This document shows positions 1,395-52,624 of a DNA stretch of 64,000 bases, piece by piece. The DNA comes from a bacterium. GTDB taxonomy: Bacteria > Patescibacteriota > Minisyncoccia > Phycocordibacterales > UBA12088. A program made the translations under genes and the position numbers. The notes below the pieces were generated by a model. It was not told the origin of the DNA and did not search any database. It saw nothing but the letters and a program-made list of their open reading frames with translations. Within the stretch, counting starts at the first letter, position 1, and each line of letters starts with the position of its first letter. The stretch spans positions 196-64,195 of the forward strand of contig QKEV01000002.1 of the NCBI GenBank assembly GCA_003252295.1, read 5' to 3'.

Positions 1395-2324
1395 TTAAGT
1401 ACAGAAGCCAACACCAAGGGCAAATGGTGTACAGTGTAGGATTCGCACCTCACCCAAATCCTCAATAGACTTTACTTGTAGTAAAGAAGCACATGTTTTG
1501 TGACCAGAAAAAGAACTTGTAATTGAGGTTGTACCAAACATATTCCTTGTATTCACTTGATACTGGACTTCAAGCTTATTCTTGAAAGTTCGAACATCTA
1601 TCTCAGTGTTCATTTGGTCTTCATGAGACTTTTTAAAGTATTGGGCTTTATTTATGAAAATATATGTTCCAGGAGAAATCATTTGTTTAACAAAAGTCCG
1701 ATTCCAATAGTCTTCATTCATGTAAAGTATTTTATTATTCAGTACAAAAAAATCCACAAGATCACTATAAAAAACATGCAGTGCAATTCTCTGCTCATAA
1801 TCATAGTAATCATAAACCGTGTTTCTCACATATGAATCAGCAGGTCTAAAGTTTTCTGGCTTGATTAAAATTCCGTTACCATCTATCACACCTGAGAAGA
1901 CTAGGCGATGAAAGAGATTGGGATTCGACCTAGTTATAAAGTCTTTCGGTGTAGATTGAATTAAACGAGCATGATTAATGTAACCCCATGTCGCACTTAT
2001 ACCAAAAGAATCTTTATACTCGGAAGTACTACGTGATGTTGATGCGTTGTGTCTGTTTGTTTCAACTGTTTTGTACCATTCCTTTCTAAAAGTCTTTAAT
2101 TGCTGAGGGGTTAGATTTTTTGATAATTCTCTTTTTGTATGAGCCTCATCGTGATGTTTCTGGCACAGAAGAACGAGATTATCAAAATCATTGTTAGAAT
2201 TATTCTTATCTATATGATGTATATGGTCACCTTTACTTGAACAAACAACACAAGAAAAGGCACTACAATACATGATTTCAGACTGAACTTTTTGTGGTAA
2301 TGCTAAACGTTTGGCCATAAACAC
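1395..2324 (-). CDS. HNH endonuclease domain protein (N-terminal HNH, ~240 aa C-terminal domain of unknown function)
   Basis: CSAFSCVVCSSKGDHIHHIDKNNSNNDFDNLVLLCQKHHDEAH = CxxC...HH...N...CxxHH HNH motif; 47 bp upstream of OLD-like gene on same strand. Confidence 0.7.
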   Translation of the reverse strand: MFMAKRLALPQKVQSEIMYCSAFSCVVCSSKGDHIHHIDKNNSNNDFDNLVLLCQKHHDEAHTKRELSKNLTPQQLKTFRKEWYKTVETNRHNASTSRSTSEYKDSFGISATWGYINHARLIQSTPKDFITRSNPNLFHRLVFSGVIDGNGILIKPENFRPADSYVRNTVYDYYDYEQRIALHVFYSDLVDFFVLNNKILYMNEDYWNRTFVKQMISPGTYIFINKAQYFKKSHEDQMNTEIDVRTFKNKLEVQYQVNTRNMFGTTSITSSFSGHKTCASLLQVKSIEDLGEVRILHCTPFALGVGFCT

Positions 2325-4889: not shown

Positions 4890-6179
4890 TTATGGAATCG
4901 ACTTCCAGTGTGCATCCTGACGACACAGGTAGTTTACTGCTGCATGTGACTCAAGGAGTATATCCTCAACTACCCGCTCCATGCGCATACCTTGGCTTCC
5001 CTTCACAAACACAATATCACCCTCCTCTACTATACTTCTAAGCACCTGGAGTGCATCTTCGTTTGTCTTGAATGATTCCACACGCTTACAACGAGCATGT
5101 GCAGCGAGTGCACCTTGTGCAGCAGCAAGCATACGTACACCGACCGCAATGAACACATCAGCAGTACTACCAACGAGCTGTCCTACTGCCATGTGACGCT
5201 CTACGGAGAAATCACCAAGTTCAAGCATGTCACCAAGCACCACGATCTTCTTACCCTTGTTCTGTATCGTAGCAAGTGCACTCATACCAGCCTCCACTGC
5301 AACAGGCGAGCTATTGTACGTATCATCAATGATTACCGAACCGTTCATTCCAGGTAAGAGTCGCATGCGTCCTGGTGCTGTCTGGTGGTTCTCGAATGCT
5401 TTCACCGAATCACTGAACATCTTTCCCTCAGAAACAATTACCGAAAGTGCAGCAAGTACAGGATAGAGGTGATGACGTCCAACCACACCACGCAAGTGCA
5501 CCTGTTCGACTCGTTGCTGGAACTGTACTGTACATGAAATACCCACCGGCATCTCATCCTCATACTCCACCCTGTAGTCAGTCCCCTTCACCATTGCATG
5601 CTCTTCAAAACCGTATGATATCTTGTGCTGGCGCTCACCCACTTCTTCGTTTGCCATTTTTCTGTCATCAGCATTCACAATAAGCGTTCCCTGTTCCCTC
5701 AATGTCTCCTTCAAGCTTCGCTTTTCTTTGGTCACCTCTTCGGGTGAGTCAAAGTACTCAACATGCACTGGCACATCCGGGAACTGTGTAAAGATAACTA
5801 TGTCTGGTTTCAACCAGCTCAATTTTCGTATATCACCCGGACGGTCTACCCCTACCTCAAGCACGAGCCATTCCGGATACTTCAAACCGCGCCATGGCAT
5901 AAGGAATCCTTCTCCGATATTCTCAAACCAACCCCAAAAACTACTCCAAGCATTTGGTAGACCGAGTATGGTGAGCGGCACCCCTATCTCACTATTGAAA
6001 CTCTTCTCACTCTTGCGAGCGTGAGTGTAGCTTGAAAGCACCGTGTACACTGCATCTTTTGTACCAGTCTTACCAACGCTTCCTGTTACCGCAATCACCT
6101 TTGGTTTGTACTTCTTGAGAACGCGTTTTGCCTCCCATATGAGTATTGCAACAATGATATTTTTTAATGTTCCCTTCAT
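4890..6179 (-). CDS. murF: UDP-N-acetylmuramoyl-tripeptide--D-alanyl-D-alanine ligase
   Basis: VIAVTGSVGKTGTKD Mur ligase P-loop; position downstream of ftsI in dcw cluster. Confidence 0.9.
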   Translation of the reverse strand: MKGTLKNIIVAILIWEAKRVLKKYKPKVIAVTGSVGKTGTKDAVYTVLSSYTHARKSEKSFNSEIGVPLTILGLPNAWSSFWGWFENIGEGFLMPWRGLKYPEWLVLEVGVDRPGDIRKLSWLKPDIVIFTQFPDVPVHVEYFDSPEEVTKEKRSLKETLREQGTLIVNADDRKMANEEVGERQHKISYGFEEHAMVKGTDYRVEYEDEMPVGISCTVQFQQRVEQVHLRGVVGRHHLYPVLAALSVIVSEGKMFSDSVKAFENHQTAPGRMRLLPGMNGSVIIDDTYNSSPVAVEAGMSALATIQNKGKKIVVLGDMLELGDFSVERHMAVGQLVGSTADVFIAVGVRMLAAAQGALAAHARCKRVESFKTNEDALQVLRSIVEEGDIVFVKGSQGMRMERVVEDILLESHAAVNYLCRQDAHWKSIP

Positions 6180-6209: not shown

Positions 6210-7928
6210 CTACCTGTCCGGCGGCACTTCGTAGTAGTTTATCAAAAAGTCGACGAGATCCATAAACGGTGTCGTGAGCGTCTCTGACGCATACTGCGCA
6301 CCTTGTGGCTCTACGTGGTACAGAAAGATAAGGTACTCTGGATCATACGCTGGGAAGTACCCAAAGAATGAATGCAGGTACCTGTCAGTATAGTACCCTC
6401 GTTCACCAACCTTTGCTATCTGAGCCGTACCGGTCTTTGCAGCTATCGAGTACCTATCCTTCTTCACTGTTCCATTCCTAAGTGCGGTGTCTACCACCTC
6501 AACGAGCATTCTCGTGATCTCCTCTGAGGTCTCTGGTTTTAGTACCTGCTTCCTATCGTCTGGTGCCACCTTTGCTTCATCACCATCATCGTACTCAATG
6601 GTCTCCACAAAGTGCGGTGTCACAAGGTAGCCACCGTTCCCGAGTGCTGAGAGTGCGCGTACGGTGCCAATTGGCGTAAGGGCAATACCTTGTCCAAACG
6701 CAGCTGTCGCATACTCAACTTTTCTTGGACTGTTAAGGTTGTCGATGAGTCCATGTGCCTCAAACGGCAGATCAATACCGGTCTCTTCACCAAAACCGAA
6801 CTCTTTCATACGTTCACCTAAGAGCTCACCCCCAACCTCTTCTGCCACAAACGCCATACCAACGTTGAGTGATTGCTTGAGCACTTCCTGCATATCCACA
6901 ACACCACGTGCACGTCCATCATAGTTTCGTATCGTATAGGTATCGAGCTCTATTGATCCAGTGTCATCATAGGTGGTATCAGCAGTAACCGCACCCACAT
7001 CAAGACCAATAGCCATAGCTATCGGCTTTATGATTGAACCCATTTCGTAGACATCCTCAACAAACGGGTTACTAAAGACTGACACATCCTCCTCCTTAGA
7101 GTAGTTGTTTGGATCAAATGAAGGGAGTGCTGCCATAGCATAAATAGCACCTGTCTTTGGGTTGATAATGATCCCTCCTATACTCTTTGCATGCCACTCG
7201 TCCTCTGTTTGCAGGAGTGCACGTTCAAGTGCCTGCTGTACGGACGGGTCGACACTGGTCACGAGGTTTCCCTCACGCTTACGAACATCATTCTCCAGAA
7301 AGTCACGTGCATTCGTGAACACCTCAGCAAAGAAGTTCACATGCATCTCTTCGTCTTTACGGGTAAGTACCGAATCCCAGTACCGCTCCAAACCATACTG
7401 ACCTTTCTGAAAACGGCTTTCACCACCAAAACCAACATAGCCAAGGATATGACTTGCAAGCGAGCCACCTGGGTAGTAGCGCCACTGCTCACGGAAGAGC
7501 TGCACCCCTTCGATATCCTCTTTGCGTATAGCATCAGCTACATCTGTATCGATATGGTTGAGTATCTCCTCGTATGGATCATTTTTCTTTGATGCACGTG
7601 CAAGAAATGTTTCTTTATCAAACTCAATATACTTTGAGAGCGTACTGTACACCGCTTCTGGATCATCAATCTTGTCCGGTAGTATCGCAAGCAAAAAACC
7701 GCTTCGCAGTGTCGCTGATGCAATCTTGTTGCCATCTTTTTCTGTAAAGTAAATAGACCCTCGATCAAACACATCTGATGAGGATTGTATGTACTGGTTG
7801 TTCGCCATCTCACGATAGCGATCACCATGCATTATTTGTAAGTAGTACAAGCGTCCCAGTATCACCAGTGCAACAAAAATTACCACCCCGGCAATTATTC
7901 TTACACGGATAACAAACTGGTCACGCAT
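6210..7928 (-). CDS. ftsI: penicillin-binding protein 2 / FtsI-type transpeptidase
   Basis: N-terminal TM, SIIKP (SxxK), KTGTAQ (KTG) motifs. Confidence 0.9.
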   Translation of the reverse strand: MRDQFVIRVRIIAGVVIFVALVILGRLYYLQIMHGDRYREMANNQYIQSSSDVFDRGSIYFTEKDGNKIASATLRSGFLLAILPDKIDDPEAVYSTLSKYIEFDKETFLARASKKNDPYEEILNHIDTDVADAIRKEDIEGVQLFREQWRYYPGGSLASHILGYVGFGGESRFQKGQYGLERYWDSVLTRKDEEMHVNFFAEVFTNARDFLENDVRKREGNLVTSVDPSVQQALERALLQTEDEWHAKSIGGIIINPKTGAIYAMAALPSFDPNNYSKEEDVSVFSNPFVEDVYEMGSIIKPIAMAIGLDVGAVTADTTYDDTGSIELDTYTIRNYDGRARGVVDMQEVLKQSLNVGMAFVAEEVGGELLGERMKEFGFGEETGIDLPFEAHGLIDNLNSPRKVEYATAAFGQGIALTPIGTVRALSALGNGGYLVTPHFVETIEYDDGDEAKVAPDDRKQVLKPETSEEITRMLVEVVDTALRNGTVKKDRYSIAAKTGTAQIAKVGERGYYTDRYLHSFFGYFPAYDPEYLIFLYHVEPQGAQYASETLTTPFMDLVDFLINYYEVPPDR

Positions 7929-12901: not shown

Positions 12902-12944
12902 CATAATAGCGCCACTCCTCGGAGTGGCGACTAACATAATTTTG

Positions 12945-13009
12945 GGTAGACGCGCACGACTCAAAACGTGCTTCGCAAGAGAGTGGGAGTTCGATTCTCC
13001 CCTCCGGCA
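12945..13009 (+). pseudogene. partial tandem duplicate of tRNA-Leu(CAA) (D-arm to 3' end; no matching 5' acceptor strand, 8-nt anticodon loop)
   Basis: GGTAGACGCGCACGACTCAAAA-CGTGC...GGGAGTTCGATTCTCCCCTCCGGCAC repeats the 3' two-thirds of the upstream tRNA with a 1-nt deletion; 5' strand CTCGGAG cannot pair with CTCCGGC. Confidence 0.7.
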
Positions 13010-13125
13010 CAATATAATGCTACTCCTTGGAGTGGCGTTATGTCATTCACCTTGCAAGCAATGTATTCGTTGACATTTTTATTTATAATGTTTTAATGTT
13101 GAAAAATACACAGGAGGGGTGCCGA

Positions 13126-13740
13126 ATGAAGATAGAGATTGATTCGATCAATGATGCACACAGTGTGACATCATCAGATGCCAGCAGGGTTGTGAGAGAT
13201 CTATGCATCTCCTACACAAGTATTAGACGTACATTCTTAGTTACATACAACGACATACATGAAGCATTTGAAGATGGTAACATCACTAGAATTGCAAAAC
13301 TCATGGAGTCAGTATTTGGACTGCCATCTGGTTTTGTTAAAAAAGTTGGATTTTCAGCAACCATCAGTGGTGGGAAATTTGATACCGCTCTAGCAGGTAT
13401 GTTATTTTCTCATCGTCATCCAGACAATTTACCCTTGGATGGTACTCTTCTTTTTAAGGACTCAAAGGAAGTTGTGTGCAGATATTCAGAAGCACTTGTT
13501 CTGCATACTATTGCACACGAGTACTCACATGCACGTTTACGACTCGATGGACACCTGTTGCGCAATTCAGAGTTTGCCACAGACATTCTTGCTATCATTG
13601 CAACTGGTACAACAGAAAGGTACCTAGAGAACATACACAAATCTGGTACGACTGTCGGTTACATACGTGAAGCTCTCTTTGAGGTGGTATTTACAGCTCT
13701 CGCAAAACATGCAGACACAATTTACCTACCTGCAGTATAG
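13126..13740 (+). CDS. hypothetical protein with HExxH motif (possible small zinc metallopeptidase)
   Basis: HTIAHEYSHARLRLDGH; RBS aggagggg before ATG at 13126. Confidence 0.45.
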   Translation: MKIEIDSINDAHSVTSSDASRVVRDLCISYTSIRRTFLVTYNDIHEAFEDGNITRIAKLMESVFGLPSGFVKKVGFSATISGGKFDTALAGMLFSHRHPDNLPLDGTLLFKDSKEVVCRYSEALVLHTIAHEYSHARLRLDGHLLRNSEFATDILAIIATGTTERYLENIHKSGTTVGYIREALFEVVFTALAKHADTIYLPAV

Positions 13741-18894: not shown

Positions 18895-18979
18895 GGAGAA
18901 TAGTATACAACAGCAGGCAACTGCTTTCTAACAAAACAAACCGGTGCAGTCACCTGCACCGGTAGAGTATACCTGTTTT

Positions 18980-19273
18980 TCACTTAAACGTGAGCGGTGT
19001 CTCAGACACCAACCTGGTAGTATCATCACCGTTAAAACCTTTTTCATACTGCAACTGCTGAACAAACTCCACAAACCGCAAGCGAGGATCGTCTTCTTTC
19101 AGGTCAGTATTTGTTAAAGCATACGCAGCAAGAAAGAGAAAGTCCTTCATGCTCAAAACATAGTCACGAATCATCACAACATCCTTACCGTCACCGTCCA
19201 TGTCATGCACCTGCACATCAAGCCCTTTCGGTATTGTTCCGTTATCTAACGTCATACTCATACCACACCTCAC
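18980..19273 (-). CDS. hypothetical protein with EF-hand-like loop (DMDGDGKDVVMIRD)
   Basis: ORF with DxDxDG calcium-loop-like motif; no other similarity. Confidence 0.35.
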   Translation of the reverse strand: MRCGMSMTLDNGTIPKGLDVQVHDMDGDGKDVVMIRDYVLSMKDFLFLAAYALTNTDLKEDDPRLRFVEFVQQLQYEKGFNGDDTTRLVSETPLTFK

Positions 19274-19386
19274 ATACGTTAAGTTGTTCTATGAAAACTT
19301 CACCTACCATTTTTATACCAAATTCTATGAATCCATCAACAAAAAACATGGGTCGCGTACCAAAGCAACGCGACCCTTTGAAGATT

Positions 19387-19656
19387 TCAAGACGGAGATG
19401 CAGTGCCATCTAAAATTACCCGTACCGAACCATCAGGTGACAGAAGCATCTCCGCACCACGAAGACATTTCACAAACTCACACTCCGTGCTACCAGGTTT
19501 AAACTTATCTCCTTGCTCATAAATTTCATATGCAAGATGCAAAACTTGAGTAAAAGAAAGCATTCCCCCAGTAAGCTCTACTGTTTTGTTTTCTCTGTCG
19601 ACGTTCAAAATTTTTGCTTCCATAAAACCCCCTTTTTGAATGAGAACATGATACAA
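19387..19656 (-). CDS. hypothetical protein
   Basis: ORF only; probable start MEAKILNV. Confidence 0.3.
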   Translation of the reverse strand: MYHVLIQKGGFMEAKILNVDRENKTVELTGGMLSFTQVLHLAYEIYEQGDKFKPGSTECEFVKCLRGAEMLLSPDGSVRVILDGTASPS

Positions 19657-19763
19657 ACCTCACCTATTTCTATAGTGCCTGTAAAAAAAGAAAAATCAAG
19701 AGATGTCTACAGTAGACATAGAATGAATTAGACCGATCTAACATTGACCGGTCTAACATAAAC

Positions 19764-20093
19764 TTAAGCAGCTTTTTTTCCTAAAAGCATTTTCAATGGG
19801 ACAGGATTTAACAGTGAGTAAAGTCTTGCCGGAGGATTTGCGTCAACAAAAACGACCTTTTCACCACAAGCAGGGCAAATTATCGTCCAAGTTGGAAGTG
19901 TCGCTTTATCTCTTGAAAATGTTTTGATACCGAAAAAACCAATGTCGGTTTCTGTTGTTATGAGTAAAGAAAAACAACTACCACAGGTCTCAACCATTCC
20001 CGGTTTCGGACCTTTCATGTATTCCTTAAATCTCTCGGAATTTATTCCCTCTCTAATGATTTTTGGCACAGTAGCACCTCCTTGAATATTCAA
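19764..20093 (-). CDS. hypothetical zinc-ribbon-containing protein
   Basis: CGSC ... CPACGEK pairs. Confidence 0.35.
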   Translation of the reverse strand: MNIQGGATVPKIIREGINSERFKEYMKGPKPGMVETCGSCFSLLITTETDIGFFGIKTFSRDKATLPTWTIICPACGEKVVFVDANPPARLYSLLNPVPLKMLLGKKAA

Positions 20094-20147
20094 AGTAAAA
20101 AATCAATTTTCTTGTAATGTTATTACAAAATATTACAACAATGTCAA

Positions 20148-20179
20148 ACAACAAAACCGCCGAAAGGCGGTTTATGTTG
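20148..20179. repeat. 32-bp hairpin repeat acaacaaaaccgccgaaaggcggtttatgttg (copy 1; GNRA-loop terminator-like)
   Basis: Identical 32-mer also at 21203..21234 adjacent to tRNA-Trp. Confidence 0.8.
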
Positions 20180-20337
20180 TTTGAAGGCGGTCTTGCCCGC
20201 CATAGCTTATTTGACTAAGTAGGCGGTCTTGCCCGCTAAGCTTACTTCGGTAAGCGAAAGCGGGTAAGGAACGTGGCTTTCAGAACTCTATAAAGAACGG
20301 GCGTATATTAAGTCGAGTATACAAGCATTGCAAAAAC

Positions 20338-20892
20338 TTACAGAAGCGAGCGAGGTTTGGTGAGGATGATTATTGCAGAAACAGTCGCAAGTGCACTCAT
20401 TACTACAAACAAGGTTTCAAAACTATAGTTCGTCACAATGTAGCCACCTGCTAACGCTCCAACTGAACCACCTGCTGCTAATATGAGTTCCCATTCAGAA
20501 TATCTTTTCACTTCCTTACCTCGGTCAAGATGAGTAGCAAAGAGCGCTCTAAATGAGGGTGAGCCAAGGCCATCTCCAAAACCTAAAATGATTTGTGCCA
20601 CAAACAAAGCAGGGATAGTTTGAAAGAATAACAATCCTATCCAACCCACTGCCCTTACTATAAACCCAGCCACCAAAAGGTACTCTTTTTCAGCAAAGCC
20701 ATCTCCAAACCTCTGCAAAAATATAACTGTAGCAACTTTGGCAATCAGCAAAACGCTAGTTAGGGCACTTATAGACAATATAGTTGCTCCAATGTTTTCA
20801 GCAAAAATTGCGTAGAGTGGCACAAGCATCGCGCCCGCAAAGACAAAAATGCCGTTACTCACGTATAGAGCTTTCAAAGCAGGGTTATTCAT
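20338..20892 (-). CDS. six-TM membrane protein resembling half of an MFS transporter (possible gene fragment)
   Basis: Hydrophobic helices and MFS-like GxxxDRxGRR-type loop remnants (LQRFGDGFAEKE); bracketed by 32-bp direct repeats. Confidence 0.45.
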   Translation of the reverse strand: MNNPALKALYVSNGIFVFAGAMLVPLYAIFAENIGATILSISALTSVLLIAKVATVIFLQRFGDGFAEKEYLLVAGFIVRAVGWIGLLFFQTIPALFVAQIILGFGDGLGSPSFRALFATHLDRGKEVKRYSEWELILAAGGSVGALAGGYIVTNYSFETLFVVMSALATVSAIIILTKPRSLL

Positions 20893-21042
20893 TTCAGTAT
20901 TATATCAGTTCTTTCTTTTAAATCTTTTGTACAACCAGTGCACAAAGAGTTATCAGAACATTTAAGTATATAGACGTAGTACATGATTCTCTCCTACGCA
21001 AGCTTTATGGCGGTCTTGTCCGCCAAGCTTACTTCGGCAAGC

Positions 21043-21060
21043 GTTGTGCGGGTCCACTCC
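21043..21060 (-). repeat. partial duplicate of tRNA-Trp 3' end (att-like)
   Basis: gttgtgcgggtccactcc vs tRNA 3' end gttgcgggtccactccgactcg; diverges after the acceptor region. Confidence 0.7.
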
Positions 21061-21202
21061 TCCTAGGTCCAAGTCACTAAGTATTTTTCATATCTTCAAA
21101 ATACTAAGTGCTTGCGACCCCACCTCGCGGTTCTTCGTTCCTCAGAACATCGCTGCGGTTTTCGAGTCGGGACACTTTGTGCGCAGGCACAAAGTTTGGA
21201 CC
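21061..21202 (-). mobile_element. family-A miniature insert between tRNA-Trp and its partial 3' duplicate
   Basis: Contains imperfect IR cactaagtatttt-N10-aaaatactaagtg then cttgcgacccc; homologous inserts at 39053..39194 and 52364..52537. Confidence 0.55.
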
Positions 21203-21234
21203 ACAACAAAACCGCCGAAAGGCGGTTTATGTTG
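21203..21234. terminator. 32-bp hairpin repeat copy 2 = bidirectional terminator immediately 3' of tRNA-Trp
   Basis: aaaccgcc-gaaa-ggcggttt stem-loop followed by T-run on both strands. Confidence 0.75.
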
Positions 21235-21305
21235 CGGGTCCACTCCGACTCGAACGGAGGACGTCGGTTTTGGAGACCGAAATTTTACCACTAAACTATG
21301 GACCC
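21235..21305 (-). tRNA. tRNA-Trp(CCA)
   Basis: Reverse complement GGGTCCATAGTTTAGTGGTAAAATTTCGGTCTCCAAAACCGACGTCCTCCGTTCGAGTCGGAGTGGACCCG; anticodon loop CTCCAAA. Confidence 0.85.
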
Positions 21306-21706: not shown

Positions 21707-21912
21707 CTACGGAAAATAACACTAACTTTTTGTTAGTGTTATTTTTTGTTTTTGCATGCCGAGGAGGGATTCGAACGAGAGGTGAGGAGGGATTGAAATA
21801 CGAAAAGTGTATTTCAAAGGGTGTCCTCCCGTGTAGGAGAGCAGTGAGCGATAGCGAACGCTGAGAACCGTGGGTTCTAAGAGCGCAGCGAGGTACGAGC
21901 GAGCAGTGAGGT
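21707..21912 (+). mobile_element. family-B miniature insert downstream of tRNA-Tyr (includes terminator hairpin aacactaac-ttttt-gttagtgtt at its start)
   Basis: Core gtaggagagcagtgagcgatagcgaacgctgagaaccgtgggttctaagagcgcagcgaggtacgagcgagcagtgag also at 34835..34905 and (reverse) 51031..51110; left end gaggagggattcgaacg is an inverted T-arm-like segment. Confidence 0.55.
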
Positions 21913-21927
21913 TCCCTCCCGGCGCAC
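21910..21927 (+). repeat. partial duplicate of tRNA-Tyr 3' end (att-like)
   Basis: ggttccctcccggcgcac vs tRNA 3' end ggttcgaatccctcccggcgcac. Confidence 0.7.
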
Positions 21928-22066
21928 AAACCAAAAATAGCTTTATTCTGTAAGGCTATTTTTGATTTGGAGGAATGTAGTTAGTTCGACACACCTTGAC
22001 ATATACAATATTTGTTCTACTATAGACATCAGGAAACCTGAAACTTACAACTCTTTGGAGGACAAC

Positions 22067-23095
22067 ATGAAAGGCGTTGAACTGCGAACTCTCACTGAAA
22101 CACTACATCCCGTAGAAGCAAGGTATATAGAAAAACCTTGTCACACAATATCAAAAGAAAGGATTGCTGAATGCGTCCCTATAGCAGAATTAGAGTACTT
22201 CACACAAAACTTAGTTACTACCAACTTCTTTAAGGAGTATCATCGTTACCCGCTCCGCATGCTAGAGAAGTTCACATTTGACGAGTTGTGCAAACTCAGG
22301 TACTCGTCAAGCATTATGATGCATGACTCTGTCAGAAAACTGTTTAAAACTGATGCACAGTATGAAGTAGTACGTAAAATTTCTAGCTCCATGTGGCGCT
22401 GGGGTATGAACAGTGGTATTTGGAATGAAGTGGTCACGGCATACAATAACCTGCGTGGCTTCACCATTAATCTACCAGATTTTGAGATACGGCTTGATTA
22501 CACAACTTGGTATAACGAATGTGGTTACTCAAAGTATAGTTGCACATTCCTTGATGGCGTCTTCGCGTATCTGGTCTACTACAAACAAAAGCATGTAATG
22601 ACCATCGGCTTTTCAATCATCGGAGGTAAAGGTGTCCTTATCCAGCAAGCGCAATCTACTCAACGTAAAGGTAATCGGTTTTTGTATAAACTACCGACCA
22701 ATAGAATGGAGTTTGTTGTTGATTTGTTCATGCAACATTTCCCTGACTATAAGCTTTACATGGTTGACGGCAGCGAACTTGCGGATCAATCTCTAAACAG
22801 TTACCGTAGAGAACTTTCTCGATTAACTGAGTGGGTTAAAACCCATCGTGACTTATACAATGACCCAGACTCAAAATACTTCGATAGAGAAAGCTTGAAA
22901 AGACACCAAGACGAGCAAGAGGAATACCGTAAATGCATTAGGCATCTTGAGGGAGACAGGTCTCGACTCAAGTCTTTTTACCGAAACGTTGGTAAATACC
23001 ATCTTTCTACGACCATAAATGTAAATGGTCTGACACACTACGGCATTGTATCGCCAGAGCAAGTGTCACTACTTCAATCATTTGCCACCGTCTAG
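22067..23095 (+). CDS. hypothetical protein (island gene 1; ORF-track start 21962, RBS ggagga before ATG 22067)
   Basis: ORF + strong terminator gccaccg-N10-cggtggc TTTTGTTTT at ~23105-23140. Confidence 0.45.
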   Translation: MKGVELRTLTETLHPVEARYIEKPCHTISKERIAECVPIAELEYFTQNLVTTNFFKEYHRYPLRMLEKFTFDELCKLRYSSSIMMHDSVRKLFKTDAQYEVVRKISSSMWRWGMNSGIWNEVVTAYNNLRGFTINLPDFEIRLDYTTWYNECGYSKYSCTFLDGVFAYLVYYKQKHVMTIGFSIIGGKGVLIQQAQSTQRKGNRFLYKLPTNRMEFVVDLFMQHFPDYKLYMVDGSELADQSLNSYRRELSRLTEWVKTHRDLYNDPDSKYFDRESLKRHQDEQEEYRKCIRHLEGDRSRLKSFYRNVGKYHLSTTINVNGLTHYGIVSPEQVSLLQSFATV

Positions 23096-23856: not shown

Positions 23857-24750
23857 CTACGGTATAGATATTTGACGTTTTTCTATAAACGTCAACGTAC
23901 ACTCGTCTCCATCTTCATACGAATTAGAATCATACACTCCATATTCAAGTGTATGATCATCCAACCACTCAAAGTCGTATGCCCCAGCATATGAACATGG
24001 TGACTGAACTGTCTCATGTACCCCTAAAGTCTCTTCTTTAACCACCGCATCAAGATATACATCTACAATGTATACAGTTTCAAGGTAACCATCACCACTT
24101 TCAACCTCATCTAGTTTTGCAATATACTGACCGGTAATTGATTGTACCTCACCACAAGAGGCACAGTAACCGTATTTATTTTCTTTTAGTTGCAACGTGT
24201 CGAATTCAAACCTCGCTATCCCGCAACACGCACTAGAACCAGGTATAGATGTAGTAAAAAACAAACTGTTACCATCCTTGTACATGTTGGGGTAGCTAAG
24301 CTTTTTCTTCGGATCAAACTGAGACTGGTATAAAGCCGTTAGGTCATCTATGACCATTTGCTGTTGTTGAGAATTTCCATCTACACTTCTCAACCTGTAG
24401 CAAAACTGCTCATAAGAACGCCCAAACGCATCATGGTCTGCACAAACATAGCTTTCAATGTATACATTACCAGAAGTTGAGTAAAATATTTCCCTCACCT
24501 CTCCAACAGTTCCAGTACTTACTTGTTGCTCCTCATTCAAAATAGGTTCAGGTTCAGGTTCAACCTCCACAATCTTCTCTACCTCCACCACCTTCTCAGG
24601 TGCATACGTATACCCAATCCAACCACCAATGAACGGCAGTGCAATAAACAACACCATTGCGAGAAGCTTTGATAGAAGAGTTACTTCGGTAAATACATTT
24701 GTTTTTGCAACTTGTTTAACTGCTTCAGGTTGAGGACTTCCCTGTTCCAT
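23857..24750 (-). CDS. membrane-anchored extracellular hypothetical protein (island gene 3)
   Basis: N-terminal TM LLAMVLFIALPFIGGWIGY then PEPEP linker and Cys-containing ectodomain. Confidence 0.45.
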   Translation of the reverse strand: MEQGSPQPEAVKQVAKTNVFTEVTLLSKLLAMVLFIALPFIGGWIGYTYAPEKVVEVEKIVEVEPEPEPILNEEQQVSTGTVGEVREIFYSTSGNVYIESYVCADHDAFGRSYEQFCYRLRSVDGNSQQQQMVIDDLTALYQSQFDPKKKLSYPNMYKDGNSLFFTTSIPGSSACCGIARFEFDTLQLKENKYGYCASCGEVQSITGQYIAKLDEVESGDGYLETVYIVDVYLDAVVKEETLGVHETVQSPCSYAGAYDFEWLDDHTLEYGVYDSNSYEDGDECTLTFIEKRQISIP

Positions 24751-25168: not shown

Positions 25169-25987
25169 TTGGAGGTTACAGCAATGATACTTTCATTAGT
25201 TTTTGCAGCTGGTTTGAGCTTTTCTGGTGTACAGTTTGAAACAGCAAAGTTACATGACGGAGAAGTTCCAGAGCCAAAAGTGAAGGATCCAATGTACTAC
25301 ATCTGCGCAGTTGAGAACATTGCCCCTCGTCATTTTCTAAAGTGGGGATACATTGAACCAGTTGAGAAAAGAGTAGAGGTTCAAGAGCACACACTCGTTA
25401 ACCCAGACAAGCAAGCAAGGGTAAAAGAGATCATCACCTCAACGCCGTACAATTACCAAAACCCCGATTACCCAAATGAGATGTATCGCACATACATTAA
25501 ATACAGGTTTGAGGTTGATGGCATGAAGTGTGGTTTTGAAGCAGTATACATACCTGCAAAGTATAATGAGTGGGCTTTTAAGGTTCATGGTGGTGGACTC
25601 ATGCCGATAAGATACCTGCCACAGAAACAAAGCGACCCTGTATACAACACATGTGTTGAGGGTAACATCCTCCCAAAAGATTTTCTACAGTGGGGAGACG
25701 TTACACCAACCCGTGATGCATCTGGAATACAAAAGCAAGTGCTCACGAACCCAGATTCAAACGCTAAAGTGGTACACATAACCACCTCAACACCTTTTGA
25801 GTATCAGCCAAACGATCTCAAACTGTGGGAGCAAGATCTGTACCTCACTCGCACTACGTATACCTTTAGTGTAAACGGTACAAAGTGCGGATTTGAAGCA
25901 ATCTACCTACCAAAGGAGTACTGTGAGTGGGACGGTGTACCATTCCGTGATGAGCTCATAAAGCTCATATACATACCTCAACAGTAA
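25169..25987 (+). CDS. secreted hypothetical protein with two ~130-aa internal repeats
   Basis: Signal peptide; repeat HFLKWGYIEPV...GMKCGFEAVYIPAKYNEW vs DFLQWGDVTPT...GTKCGFEAIYLPKEYCEW; terminator accgcccag-N7-ctgggcggt. Confidence 0.5.
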   Translation: MEVTAMILSLVFAAGLSFSGVQFETAKLHDGEVPEPKVKDPMYYICAVENIAPRHFLKWGYIEPVEKRVEVQEHTLVNPDKQARVKEIITSTPYNYQNPDYPNEMYRTYIKYRFEVDGMKCGFEAVYIPAKYNEWAFKVHGGGLMPIRYLPQKQSDPVYNTCVEGNILPKDFLQWGDVTPTRDASGIQKQVLTNPDSNAKVVHITTSTPFEYQPNDLKLWEQDLYLTRTTYTFSVNGTKCGFEAIYLPKEYCEWDGVPFRDELIKLIYIPQQ

Positions 25988-34746: not shown

Positions 34747-34912
34747 CAAGTTTTGAACAAAGTGAAAAACTTTGTTTGGGGTGGAAATCGAACGTTGGAA
34801 GGGGTCGGGAAACCTGTAGGTTTCCCGTATAGGAGAGCAGTGAACGACAGTGAACGCTGAGAACCGTGGGTTCTTAGAGAGCGACGTAAGGAGCGAGTGA
34901 GATAGCAAAGCG
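34747..34912 (+). mobile_element. family-B miniature insert downstream of tRNA-Leu(UAA)
   Basis: gtataggagagcagtgaacgacagtgaacgctgagaaccgtgggttcttagagagcgacgtaaggagcgagtgag; left end ggggtggaaatcgaacg. Confidence 0.55.
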
Positions 34913-34927
34913 TCCCGCCCCGGGCAC
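34913..34927 (+). repeat. partial duplicate of tRNA-Leu(UAA) 3' end (att-like)
   Basis: cccgccccgggcaca identical to tRNA 3' end. Confidence 0.7.
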
Positions 34928-34960
34928 AAACTTACGAACGAGTGCATTAAAATAACAAAA

Positions 34961-38904: not shown

Positions 38905-39038
38905 AGTATTTCTCCTGAAAAATTAATATTACTGACCTAAACTCGAGAATACCAAAATATTACTAATACTCAACCTATCACAACACCAAAAGAAATAAAA
39001 ATATTCCTTGCAAAGAAAGAATGTTTTTATTTGTTTTG

Positions 39039-39052
39039 TGCCGGGGAGAGGA
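39039..39052 (-). repeat. partial duplicate of tRNA-Leu(UAG) 3' end plus 12 nt of its flank (att-like)
   Basis: tttatttgttttgtgccggggagagga at 39025-39052 vs cttatttgttttgtgccggggagaggacttgaacc at the tRNA. Confidence 0.7.
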
Positions 39053-39194
39053 ATCTTTCTCATTACATGAGCAGTATGGGTTTCCAGTATTTTGATTCGC
39101 AAAGCTCTCAAAATACTAGGCAACCCTTTCAAGTCCTCTCCTCGGTCAAAACAACAATCGCGGAATGCTCAACACATTCCGCTTATTTGTTTTG
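39053..39194 (-). mobile_element. family-A miniature insert between tRNA-Leu(UAG) and its partial duplicate
   Basis: ccagtattttga-N12-tcaaaatactagg caaccc, same architecture as Trp and Ser-GGA copies. Confidence 0.55.
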
Positions 39195-39276
39195 TGCCGG
39201 GGAGAGGACTTGAACCTCCATGCCTTGCGGCACTTGCTCCTAAGGCAAGCGTGTCTACCAATTTCACCACCCCGGC
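39195..39276 (-). tRNA. tRNA-Leu(UAG), type II
   Basis: Reverse complement GCCGGGGTGGTGAAATTGGTAGACACGCTTGCCTTAGGAGCAAG...GGAGGTTCAAGTCCTCTCCCCGGCA. Confidence 0.85.
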
Positions 39277-39353: not shown

Positions 39354-39426
39354 CCGCCCATAGCTCAGCTGGTAGAGCAGTCGCCTCTTAAGCGAACGGT
39401 CCTAGGTTCGAGTCCTAGTGGGCGGA
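39354..39426 (+). tRNA. tRNA-Lys(CUU) (one G-A mismatch at top of anticodon stem)
   Basis: CCGCCCA/TGGGCGG acceptor, D-arm GCTCAGCTGGTAGAGC, anticodon loop CTCTTAA, T-arm CTAGGTTCGAGTCCTAG. Confidence 0.75.
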
Positions 39427-39564
39427 CTAAAAACACTTACGTCCCGATGCGATGAGCATTGGGGCGTTAGTGCTTTTCAGACCACTAGGGCTCGAAAGGG
39501 TTACCTGATATTTTGCAACTGAAAGGTGTAAAAATATCGGAAACCCATACTGTTCTGTAAGAAA
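39427..39564 (+). mobile_element. family-C insert between tRNA-Lys and its partial duplicate
   Basis: Unique 138-bp sequence followed by partial tRNA copy. Confidence 0.45.
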
Positions 39565-39579
39565 GAGTCCTAGTGGGTG
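39565..39579 (+). repeat. partial duplicate of tRNA-Lys 3' end (att-like)
   Basis: gagtcctagtgggtg vs tRNA cgagtcctagtgggcgg; followed by terminator aaaagcacc-ttaata-ggtgctttt. Confidence 0.65.
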
Positions 39580-49058: not shown

Positions 49059-49192
49059 CTATTATTCTCCTTTGGAAAAAGACTGAAAACTACATTCATT
49101 ACCTTCCTATATTATACCATATTTAATATATTTGTCCAGTTTTATATAGTAGAAAAAGACTCGCTTTTACACGAGTCTTTTTCATATTTTTT

Positions 49193-49583
49193 CCTATATC
49201 TATAAGCCGGATTCTGTATCCCCCACCACTTTTGTTCGTGTACGAACAAAAGTGGTGGGGGACGATAGTTATTTACCTAGCTTTACAGTTACCTGTAAAG
49301 TCATGCGGCACTCCCCCCACCACTTTTACACGATATTCGTGTAAAAGTGGTGGGAGGCACGACCTTGCACGCAGGTAAGGATTTTGCCGTTTCACTCGCC
49401 ACGTTACCGTAGTGATTCATCCACTATGTGGATGTCTTTCCCTTTCGGTCTAGACGTCACTGCTCGCACCTCTATGCTTACACACGACGGGTGTTACCCG
49501 CTACCCTGCTCCCAAAAAATGGGGCGTGTCCGGACTTTCCTCACTGTATATAAAATACACAGCGCAACTATCCGATATAGACT
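49193..49583 (-). ncRNA. rnpB: RNase P RNA (bacterial type A)
   Basis: Minus strand carries GGAAAGTCCGGAC (P4 5' strand), CAGGGTAGCGGGTAACACCCG (cf. CAGGGUGCCAGGUAACGCCUGG), 3' ACAGAATCCGGCTTAT (P4 3' strand) and P1 pairing TCTATATC/GATATAGG; two near-identical long hairpins cccaccacttttgttcg...cgaacaaaagtggtggg. Confidence 0.75.
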
Positions 49584-50875: not shown

Positions 50876-51030
50876 TCATACGTGTGCAGTTGTGTTGTAC
50901 CTTACAAAGAAAGAAAATTACAGGGTTATTTGATACAAGCAACATAACCCTTTTTTTATTAGGATGTGTATCCTAACTGATGATTCCAAAAGGATGAAAA
51001 AATAAAGTAATTTTTTTAATACATTTTCGT

Positions 51031-51110
51031 CTGTGGAGGAGGAGAAAATCTCACTGCTCACTCACTCCGTTCGTTGCGCTCACAAAACCCACGGTTTTAC
51101 AATATTCCTC
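51031..51110 (-). mobile_element. family-B element core (reverse orientation) ~210-290 bp downstream of tRNA-Ser(CGA), ending in partial tRNA-Ser-like ttctcctcctcc
   Basis: Minus strand reads cctgtggagga...aaaaccgtgggttttgtgagcgcaacgaacggagtgagtgagcagtgag-attttctcctcctcc, colinear with Tyr/Leu-TAA copies. Confidence 0.5.
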
Positions 51111-51320
51111 CACAGGGGTGTTGCGTCACCTCCGAGCTTTGCACTTGATTTTGTAATTTATATTTCATAACAAAAACTCTACACCCCCGACGCGTTCGGA
51201 TCCCACACTTTCAGAGTAAACAAAAAGTACTAGGAGAAACCTAGTACTTTTTGTTTATCCCGCCTTCGCTCATCTCTTGCGGACTGTGTCCGCCGGAGCC
51301 GAGCTTCTGCGAGGCGAAGG

Positions 51321-52235: not shown

Positions 52236-52344
52236 ATACAACACAGGGTAACATTTTTTATCATTTCTTGTACAAAGAATTTTTGTCTTCTTGCAACATT
52301 TTGCTGACTGTGTCAGTCGAAGCCGAGCCTCTGCGAGGAAAAGG

Positions 52345-52363
52345 CGGAGAGAGGGGGATTCGG
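52345..52363 (-). repeat. partial duplicate of tRNA-Ser(GGA) 3' end plus shared downstream flank (att-like)
   Basis: cggagagagggggattcgg vs tRNA 3' end cggagagagggggattcgaaccc; flank gactgtgtc.g.cg.agccgagc.tctgcgagg also matches the Ser(CGA) 3' flank at 51270-51320. Confidence 0.7.
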
Positions 52364-52537
52364 TCACAAGTTACTAAGTATTATTCGGAGCAATACTCCT
52401 CAAATACTAAGTACTTGCTACCCCGCCTCAGTGCTTTTTCGTGCTTTGGCACGCGCACTTCCGGCTTTCGAATCCACCGTTCCAAATGGAACCACAAAAG
52501 GTGTACTACTACTGTAGCACACCTTTTGTGTCTCCTG
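52364..52537 (-). mobile_element. family-A miniature insert between tRNA-Ser(GGA) and its partial duplicate
   Basis: ttactaagtatt-N19-aaatactaagtacttgctacccc; hairpin aaaaggtgt-N14-acacctttt next to tRNA. Confidence 0.55.
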
Positions 52538-52624
52538 CGGAGAGAGGGGGATTCGAACCCCCGATACGCTTTCACGTATACATCCTTTCCAAGGATGCGC
52601 GATCGACCACTCTGCCATCTCTCC
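52538..52624 (-). tRNA. tRNA-Ser(GGA), type II
   Basis: Reverse complement GGAGAGATGGCAGAGTGGTCGATCGCGCATCCTTGGAAAGGATG...GGGGGTTCGAATCCCCCTCTCTCCG. Confidence 0.85.

Follow-up and report, generated by a model that had tools for sequence, protein, structure and literature searches.

The 64,000-nucleotide (nt) stretch of DNA analyzed here (the window; contig QKEV01000002.1 of assembly GCA_003252295.1, from a member of the Patescibacteria) contains, on its minus strand, a tRNA-Trp gene followed by an insert of ~150 nt that ends in a copy of the tRNA tail. The insert belongs to a well-supported family of gene-less, structured, orientation-specific elements that are inserted at the segment from T-loop to 3' end of tRNA genes across the Patescibacteria. 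The 3' end of the tRNA gene is referred to here as X1, the direct duplicate that closes the insert as X2, and an inverted complementary copy of the same segment, located inside the insert, as X' (Table 1). The succession of tRNA-Trp, hairpin, insert, and tail copy given in a preliminary description of the locus was confirmed with ARAGORN, with Rfam, and by the 14-mer GGAGTGGACCCGCA, which has two exact occurrences in the window, one at the 3' end of the tRNA gene (positions 21233 to 21246) and one in the duplicate (positions 21047 to 21060); a chance recurrence of an exact 14-mer within 200 nt has a probability below 1e-6. The duplicate is real, but its full length is 20 nt rather than the 17 nt first reported, with three mismatches that all fall in the T-loop part and an exact final 14 nt. 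Also confirmed were the inverted repeat CACTTAGTATTTT/AAAATACTTAGTG and, next to it, the GGGGTCGCAAG stretch; the repeat plus cttgcgacccc makes up the long imperfect hairpin P3, which contains a conserved T.T mismatch, a conserved bulged A, and a conserved G.U pair. The complement of the target carried inside the element, X', is its most distinctive feature and was missed in that description.

The spacer hairpin between tRNA-Trp and X' looks, from its sequence, like an intrinsic terminator; a simple terminator scan did not call it. Together with the flanks of this hairpin, the end of tRNA-Trp and X' lengthen its stem into one long imperfect palindrome. At this position, other copies of the family have a hairpin that differs in sequence, and orthologous copies show compensatory changes relative to one another. 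X' of the Trp element is interrupted by a 22-nt hairpin, and a sister copy in the genome L080 has an X' that is a perfect complement (TGCGGGTCCA/CTCCGACTCGAA) interrupted by the same kind of hairpin. Next to X' is a short helix, P2, bordered by the conserved junction purines GAAA, GGA, and GA, and the 3' strand of P3 directly adjoins X2 (...TTGGAC|C). Folding of the Trp element compared with that of shuffled controls gave a z score of -5.09. No promoter-like site was found inside the element, and a metagenome search returned no match to the exact junction of X2 with its flank.

A script that compared each tRNA gene with its surroundings found an insert and a partial duplicate downstream of 8 of the 10 tRNA genes in the window. 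The pattern is therefore not confined to the three tRNA genes originally named; it comprises seven mini-elements (behind tRNA-Trp, -Ser(GGA), -Leu(UAG), -Lys(CUU), -Tyr, -Leu(UAA), and -Ser(CGA), with inserts of 140 to 300 nt) and a partial copy behind tRNA-Leu(CAA). Each of the seven inserts also includes an X' that ends at the T-loop complement (...ATTCGAA), and the order is that of a tRNA ending in X1, hairpin, X', core, and X2. Nothing follows tRNA-Glu, the sole tRNA gene of the window with an encoded CCA (9 of 10 are without it), and tRNA-Cys is directly upstream of tRNA-Leu(UAA). The cores fall into two families. Family A, with the CTTAGTATTTT hairpin, is present at full length behind tRNA-Trp and tRNA-Ser(GGA) and in a shorter form behind tRNA-Leu(UAG) and tRNA-Lys, and a family A model scored these copies at 76.7 bits (Trp), 112.8 bits (Ser(GGA), full length), 23.1 bits (Leu(UAG), hairpin only), and 15.3 bits (Lys, E value of 0.024). 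The inserts behind tRNA-Trp, tRNA-Ser(GGA), and tRNA-Leu(UAG) had been described as alike; the tRNA-end duplicates at the latter two sites were confirmed, but the Leu(UAG) element is a member of the shorter subfamily and has only the long hairpin in common with the other two. Family B, with the motif GAGAACCGTGGGTTCT, occupies tRNA-Tyr, tRNA-Leu(UAA), and tRNA-Ser(CGA) and was also found behind tRNA-Arg in L117, with perfect repeats, and behind tRNA-Lys in L092.

The search of related genomes for further copies that the preliminary description had suggested was productive. A scan of 185,579 species genomes for the hairpin motif returned at least 117 stretches, and more than 100 copies are present among the matches listed, nearly all of them from Patescibacteria; most of the listed stretches are from Kaiserbacteria, Paceibacterota/Parcubacteria, Campbellbacteria, and metagenome-assembled genomes labelled Saccharibacteria. 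A tRNA 3' end is situated 40 to 600 nt upstream in 67 of the 118 pattern matches listed, and all 67 are on the strand of the tRNA, with at least 27 anticodons represented. The duplicate in 24 clean copies begins at T-loop nucleotide C56, exactly 10 nt past the hairpin motif, and runs to approximately position 74, so that it mostly measures 19 to 20 nt. A covariance model built from 33 copies produced 130 matches in 100 loci. The 26 strong matches without the scan motif do not depend on the way in which the loci had been gathered; 21 of them have a tRNA gene on the same strand just upstream, and most of these 21 carry the exact 19- to 20-nt duplicate from C56. Among 188 tRNA genes across all loci collected, which served as a control set, 43 have their 3' end directly repeated downstream over an exact 14 nt, at a distance of no more than 600 nt, and none upstream; an exact 11-nt inverted copy of tRNA positions 54 to 64 was found for 44 downstream and for none upstream.

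The duplicates vary more in length than the 13 to 19 nt first proposed. Most measure 19 to 20 nt, and the extremes are ~4 nt (L047) at one end and 42 nt (L057) and ~51 nt (L036) at the other, a range that does not fit one fixed staggered cut. In a second class of sites the end of the hairpin is joined only a few nucleotides before the 3' end of the tRNA, and the repeat consists of the tRNA tip together with the terminator, as in the perfect 42-nt repeat of L057; duplicates are short and diverged at such extreme 3'-end sites. The targets are not exclusively tRNA genes. An element at the end of rplL in L079 separates a first copy of the gene end, ...GTTACTCTTAAGTAA, from a displaced copy, ...GTTACGCTTAAATAA, both of which encode VTLK followed by a stop codon and which differ at two synonymous positions, and elements in L085, L047, and L112 are located behind other protein genes.

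The consensus fold is a three-way junction in which P1 is formed by X' paired with the downstream duplicate, P2 is a short helix (G-N-C with G-N'-C) around a variable hairpin, and P3 is the long hairpin whose T.T mismatch, bulged A, and G.U pair are conserved throughout the family. The 3' strand of P3 continues into the duplicate (...GTGAC|CGAAT...), which places the joining point at the boundary of P3 and P1. Paired cells account for 89.7% of the real alignment compared with 77.4% of shuffled alignments and 29 to 43% when the partners are slid. Changes on both sides were seen in 26 pairs overall, including 10 of the 18 pairs of P3; examples are column pairs 23/77 (CG in 17, AU in 9, and GC in 4 copies) and 28/73 (GC in 14 and AU in 13) in P2 and column pair 89/134 (GC in 16 and AU in 14). 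The G.U pair of P3 (columns 85/139) occurs in 28 of 33 copies, and the other wobbles of P3 are G.T in 20 instances and A.C in only 2. The excess of G.T over A.C, together with the conserved G.U pair, shows selection for folding on the tRNA-sense strand. Two copies in L071 (positions 5233 to 5375 and 6811 to 6953) differ almost exclusively in the apical stem of P3, which reads CACTTAGTATTTTAG/CTAAAATACTTAGTG in one and CACTTAATATTCTAC/GTAGAATATTTAGTG in the other; the three compensatory pair changes between them indicate that the apex evolves fast yet stays paired. X' extends 5' past the duplicate, by 2 nt in family A and by 7 nt, the whole T-loop, in family B, where X' ends in ...TCGAAC (its complement begins at G53) and the duplicate begins at T60. 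At extreme 3'-end sites, the 2 additional nucleotides of X' follow the local target (CG, CT, CC, or CA).

Contigs of relatives were reached through homologs of ribosomal protein L33, whose gene is situated between tRNA-Trp and tRNA-Tyr. The tRNA-Trp site is empty in L002, L003, L004, L006, and L007, where the next gene follows within 16 to 110 nt. L005 has the same L33 protein as L004, yet its tRNA-Trp gene is occupied by a 170-nt insert of another family with a 17-nt duplicate. Four genomes (L132, L133, L080, and that of the window) have an identical tRNA-Trp 3' end and differ in occupancy: the site is empty in L132, with a gene immediately next to it, L133 shows no more than a small mirrored hairpin, and L080 and the window carry the same element sub-lineage, in both cases with the 22-nt hairpin in X'. 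Empty and occupied sites, the comparison of which had been proposed as a check, both exist, in L132 against L080 and the window and, for another family, in the close pair L004 and L005. In L080, X1 and its trailer combine with X' into a perfect palindrome of 24 bp. The window has ~2.1 kb between the Trp element and xseA (positions 18895 to 21046, minus strand) that are missing in relatives, in which xseA directly follows tRNA-Trp; this segment contains an open reading frame (ORF) for a 184-amino-acid (aa) MFS-like protein and three small ORFs without a Pfam match, and it is not closed by any further copy of a tRNA end.

Elements also occur in tandem arrays (L021, L032, L035, and L004). In L021, tRNA-Gln is followed by a family A element, a copy of the tRNA end, a second element with a pseudo-tRNA-Gln fragment, and another copy of the tRNA end; the second element (positions ~670 to 920) contains a copy of the D-arm and anticodon-arm region of tRNA-Gln (GTAGGACAGAGGCCTTTGAAGCCTT). 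A chimera in L020 (positions ~790 to 1050) joins the 5' part of this second element to the family A hairpin, which indicates recombination between members of an array. Some copies are associated with cargo. In L071, tRNA-Asp is followed by an element, a copy of the tRNA end, an ORF of 361 aa with a second complete element, and a further copy of the tRNA end, and in L091 a 3.6-kb island (encoding DUF2726, DUF4145, and other proteins) is closed by a truncated element end and a copy of the tRNA end. In the orthologous tRNA-Gln copies of L021, L091, L107, and L129, conservation of the element extends to the left hairpin, where compensatory changes are seen, and the sequence past X2 differs between genomes.

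Table 1. Elements, their parts, and other features located in the window
Feature	Position	Strand	Basis or remarks
tRNA-Trp(CCA)	21234/5-21305	-	ARAGORN; Rfam tRNA, 63.2 bits; without encoded CCA
X1 of tRNA-Trp (tRNA positions 56-75)	21252-21233	-	
Spacer hairpin after tRNA-Trp, AAACCGCC-TTTC-GGCGGTTT	21228-21209	-	Sequence
X' of Trp element (inverted complementary copy of tRNA positions ~54-75)	21161..21205	-	
X' of Trp element, first part, TGTGGTCCA(A)	21205-21196	-	
X' of Trp element, interrupting 22-nt hairpin	21195-21174	-	
X' of Trp element, second part, GTCCCGACTCGAA	21173-21161	-	
P2 of Trp element (ACC/GGT) around small variable hairpin	21122..21159	-	Family alignment, pair counts, model alignment
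P3 of Trp element, long imperfect hairpin, GGTCGCAAGCACTTAGTATTTT ... AAAATACTTAGTGACTTGGACC	21066..21119	-	
X2 of Trp element (direct duplicate of tRNA positions 56-75)	21047..21066	-	Family-model alignment; 17/20 identical
Element behind tRNA-Ser(GGA)	52344..52533	-	tRNA at 52537-52624
Ser(GGA) element, spacer hairpin; X'; P2; P3	~52495-52529; 52467-52497; 52425-52465; 52362-52423		
Ser(GGA) element, X2	52362-52344	-	19/19 exact
Element behind tRNA-Leu(UAG)	39027..39193	-	Short subfamily; tRNA at 39194-39276
Leu(UAG) element, spacer hairpin; P3-like hairpin; X2	39160-39182; 39078-39125; 39027-39052		X2 of 26 nt
Leu(UAG) element, X'	39128-39147	-	19/20 complement of tRNA positions 54-73
Element behind tRNA-Lys(CUU)	39428..39577	+	Short subfamily, weak member; tRNA at 39354-39427; X' 39482-39496; X2 39565-39577
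Family B element behind tRNA-Tyr	21708-21927	+	Core ...GGAGAGCAGTGA..GAACGCTGAGAACCGTGGGTTCT...
Family B element behind tRNA-Leu(UAA)	34748-34930	+	Same core
Family B element behind tRNA-Ser(CGA)	~51020-51318	-	Same core
Region downstream of tRNA-Leu(CAA)	12903-13010	+	Hairpin from copy of the tRNA's own 5' end, then second, 5'-defective tRNA copy
Trailer motif	20995-21046; ~51265-51318; ~52290-52343	-	Also L004, 5900-5938
RNase P RNA, class A	49187-49583	-	125 bits (gathering score, 100)

Searches with Rfam 15 returned no match to an element at E values of up to 10 for the region in the window or up to 0.1 for eight loci, and the only matches above thresholds were to tRNA and RNase P. A full-text search of the literature found no description of these elements, and a family of gene-less folded tRNA-tail elements has apparently not been described before. 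The only paper found on tRNA-linked peculiarities of Patescibacteria deals with group I introns at anticodon-loop position 35/36 (PMC13011429). Several known kinds of element were considered and rejected. A group I or group II intron or a ribozyme was set aside for want of Rfam matches. An antisense tRNA-like gene or transfer-messenger RNA-like domain was considered on account of TTCGAA on the opposite strand, but ARAGORN and Rfam returned no match, there is no T-stem, and the wobbles favor the tRNA-sense strand. X' has no TGG to pair with CCA, as a retroviral-type primer-binding site would, and all cores are oriented alike relative to the tRNA (67 of 67 among the matches listed and 21 of 21), unlike inversion modules of the kind formed by pdif pairs.

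We consider it about an even chance that the Trp insert is a non-autonomous, site-specific integrative mini-cassette that carries a replacement tRNA 3' end with a terminator and a folded attachment module. An element of this kind would insert in or beside the T-loop of a tRNA gene, and in occasional cases at a protein gene's 3' end, to give the integrated order of tRNA 5' part, X1 (positions 56 to 74), hairpin, X' (the complement of positions 54 to ~70), P2, P3 ending in ...GTGAC, X2 (the displaced positions 56 to 74), and the old flank. The element would supply the 3' end of the gene and a terminator-like hairpin, and the original 3' end would be displaced downstream; because the element brings its own copy of the 3' end, the target gene would stay intact. 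A replacement 3' end is favored over a duplication made by a fixed staggered cut because of the conserved left hairpin, the rplL case, and the range of repeat lengths. Pairing of X' with a copy of the tRNA end would rebuild a duplex image of the attachment site that stacks directly on P3, with the joining point at their boundary, and the folded single strand of tRNA sense, either DNA or a transcript, could then be recognized by a recombinase supplied in trans. What we infer here is that the element brought X1 with it and that its fold may be the substrate of such a trans-acting recombinase, as well as the type of enzyme. On this model, the empty Trp site would have had the T-loop of tRNA-Trp joined straight to ...GGAGTGGACCCGCACAACGCTTGCC, and the circle junction of the Trp element would read ...CTTGGAC joined to CGAGTCGGAGTGGACCCGCAACATAAACC.

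A number of observations weigh against this model. The view that inserts of this size are too small to encode an enzyme was upheld, and no gene for an integrase, transposase, reverse transcriptase, or guided nuclease recurs within 3.5 kb of 86 copies either, where clustering of ORFs revealed housekeeping synteny only; the integrase gene that the preliminary description had proposed to seek beside a longer copy was thus not encountered. BLAST with a Phage_integrase protein of Patescibacteria found no homolog in the window or close to the copies, and no recombinase is encoded by the window ORFs tested. Neither a free nor a circular form was seen, BLAST of phage and plasmid records found neither the element nor an attP, and pattern scans of viral contigs gave only chance hits or none; a double-stranded circle of ~170 to 200 bp would be hard to form. 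The mismatches between X' and X2 in P1 are balanced between G.T (22) and A.C (24), without a wobble bias, and their complementarity therefore looks inherited rather than selected; between X' and the tRNA's own end, X1, the bias is weak (21 G.T and 9 A.C). Covariation does not discriminate single-stranded DNA from RNA. The offset between X' and the duplicate is not predicted by a simple crossover at the edge of the repeat, and a single core at more than 27 targets needs X1 and X' to change together with each target, which the model does not explain.

The co-change of X1 and X' with each target and the offset of X' from the duplicate keep in play a different role for X', although we hold it to be unlikely: X' may be a programmable guide, in single-stranded DNA or RNA, that pairs with the sense strand of the target while an enzyme acting in trans joins the end of the hairpin at the edge of the duplex. 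It is equally unlikely, in our judgment, that the family is a new kind of gene-less guided mobile element that depends on a conserved, host-encoded enzyme of the Patescibacteria and is retargeted by changing ~12 to 20 nt of X'. A guide would explain how a single core serves many targets. X' is complementary to whatever occupies the site (at least 27 tRNA species, rplL, and other gene ends), it crosses the joining point by the 2 nt that are missing from the downstream duplicate and that are locally matched at extreme-end sites, and the joining point is always at the P3/P1 boundary. However, no TnpB-, IscB-, or IS110-type gene or other candidate is located near any copy examined, the guide would be paired in cis when integrated, a guide alone explains neither the direct duplicate nor the mirrored trailer, and the known guided transposons (IS110 and IS605) differ in having short split guides and duplications of 0 to 2 nt. 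The conserved G.U pair on the tRNA-sense strand and the strand-specific covariation would also suit a structured RNA useful to the host, the read-through transcript or terminator-like hairpin of which serves the cell, be it in termination or insulation of tRNA genes or as a small RNA that mimics the acceptor/T-arm minihelix. The purine-rich junction strands (GAAA and GGA/GA), which appear typical of RNA junctions, the retention by several genomes of the element, with compensatory changes, behind their orthologous tRNA-Gln genes, and the constant placement of a hairpin between tRNA and element are in line with such a function. We nevertheless regard it as fairly unlikely, given that the Trp element has no promoter-like site and is preceded by a terminator-like hairpin, that X' and X2 show no bias toward wobbles and many copies have a decaying X2, that related genomes lack the element at the same tRNA, that the copies at protein-gene ends have no tRNA-like helix, and that Rfam contains no match.

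The repeats could instead be made anew at each insertion, by a transposase or by target-primed copying that nicks the T-loop and a site downstream, so that the repeat is a target-site duplication and X' a product of fold-back synthesis through the native terminator hairpin. Such a process would account for a mirrored arm that takes in the locus-specific trailer, as in the 24-bp palindrome of tRNA end and trailer in L080, for perfect 42- to 51-nt repeats that include the native terminator (L057 and L036), and for one junction being fixed and the other variable. [quoted passage not shown] The preliminary description had also offered the view that the inserts are scars of site-specific integration, and two parts of it stand, namely, an origin by insertion and an att-like duplicate of the tRNA 3' end. 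Duplicates of tRNA 3' ends are the classical footprint of island integration, variable genes adjoin several tRNA genes of the window, and relatives lack the 2.1-kb segment that separates xseA from the Trp element, all of which would agree with decayed attL/attR remnants of excised or deleted islands that have neither structure nor activity of their own. Inert remnants of this kind are nonetheless highly improbable, as a core of ~140 nt recurs at more than 100 places in many lineages and as a conserved, covarying three-way junction, a fixed orientation, and precise junctions are not expected of random remnants.

Other features of the window were recorded alongside the elements. The second copy behind tRNA-Leu(CAA) spans the tRNA from the D-loop to the 3' end, and the version in L004 is shorter, from the variable arm to the 3' end; ARAGORN called neither copy. 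A trailer motif, (C)TTCGC(T/C)TGCCG.AG..GCT.GGCGG...A.A..CCGC, recurs after tRNA ends or duplicates, and its segment GGCGGG/GCGAAGGCGG is the complement of the final tRNA bases in L004 and at tRNA-Ser(CGA). The ORF after tRNA-Glu (positions 1395 to 2324, minus strand) contains an HNH-like motif (...HHIDKNNSNNDFDNLVLLCQKHHDEAH...) and has no Pfam match, and the same search gave no match for the tRNA-adjoining ORFs at positions 13027 to 13740, 21962 to 23095, 23857 to 24750, and 25169 to 25987.

The tiny genomes of Patescibacteria are considered poor in mobile DNA; in the 64-kb stretch analyzed here, small structured inserts that belong to shared families accompany most of the tRNA genes. The elements explain assembly breaks and spurious ORF calls close to tRNA genes, and they mark hot spots of island entry in these genomes. 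Should the fold be a recombination substrate, as the mini-cassette model holds, this would be the third natural case of integration of a folded single strand, after integron attC sites and CTX-type phages, and the first at tRNA genes and the first without genes; should X' be a guide, the family would represent a compact natural retargeting system. The junction ...GTGAC|C56 provides a precise sequence handle for finding the enzyme.

Several classes of small mobile elements share individual features with the family. It is not MITE-like in the strict sense, contrary to the preliminary description: in contrast to MITEs (miniature inverted-repeat transposable elements), the terminal inverted X'/X sequences vary with each tRNA, the length of the duplication is not fixed, and no parent insertion sequence was found. 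Casposon derivatives have a 14- to 15-bp duplication, constant terminal inverted repeats, and Cas1, with which the duplication lengths and variable ends seen here do not agree, and there is no conserved neighboring ORF. There is a resemblance to IS200/IS605 elements and their miniature derivatives, the palindrome-associated transposable elements, in that strand-specific hairpins carry conserved irregularities and the joining point is ~10 nt 3' of the hairpin foot; as in IS200/IS605, a short pairing between element and target defines the site, and there are miniature copies without ORFs. IS200/IS605 elements, however, leave no direct repeat, compared with the 19- to 20-nt flanking repeat of this family, have hairpins that match at both ends, whereas the left hairpin here is not conserved in sequence, and use guides of 4 to 5 nt with a fixed target motif.

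Site-specific integration at tRNA 3' ends is well known, and the unusual aspect of the present family is the self-contained folded module. Williams reportedly distinguished, in 2002, a T-loop sublocation class of tRNA-gene integration by tyrosine integrases. In common with such integration and with cis-mobilizable elements (CIMEs), the family has an identity block that runs from the T-loop through the tRNA 3' end, restores the gene, accretes in tandem at the same tRNA, and includes small enzyme-less derivatives between att repeats. It differs in that no integrase-bearing parent was found and one core serves at least 27 tRNA species as well as protein-gene ends, and it differs from att scars in its conserved covarying fold and internal target complement.

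The folded-single-strand logic proposed for the family is that of integron attC sites and of the folded attP of CTX-type phages. In the integrative mobile elements exploiting Xer (IMEX) represented by CTX phage, which uses host XerCD, a duplex resembling the chromosomal target can form by folding of two inverted target-like sites with a spacer between them, and the enzyme is provided in trans rather than encoded by the element. The family described here differs from these in its target, the tRNA 3' end rather than dif, in its size of ~150 to 200 nt without genes, and in a target image that varies from copy to copy. It also departs from integrons, as the head of an array is a tRNA gene and not an intI/attI platform, with no IntI found and no integrase adjoining, and from attC sites, as the outer helix is a 12- to 20-bp image of the target instead of a 7-bp core and the junction, GTGAC|CGAAT in the tRNA T-loop with the T-loop TT missing from the downstream copy, does not correspond to G|TTRRRY (core sites RYYYAAC and G|TTRRRY). 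The geometry is analogous to that of attC, with P1 and P3 sharing a continuous strand, a T.T mismatch, a bulged A, and a variable loop, and the elements have P2 as an additional helix. As in attC, the putative recombination module is set by structure and not by sequence, with imperfect inverted repeats that fold on only one strand, unpaired bases are conserved in the inner helix (here the T.T mismatch and the bulged A), and the joining point is at the inner end of the outer helix, the outer strand of which is supplied by the next unit of the array. Similarly to integron cassettes, the elements form tandem arrays in which units without an ORF occur together with units that carry one, as in L071.

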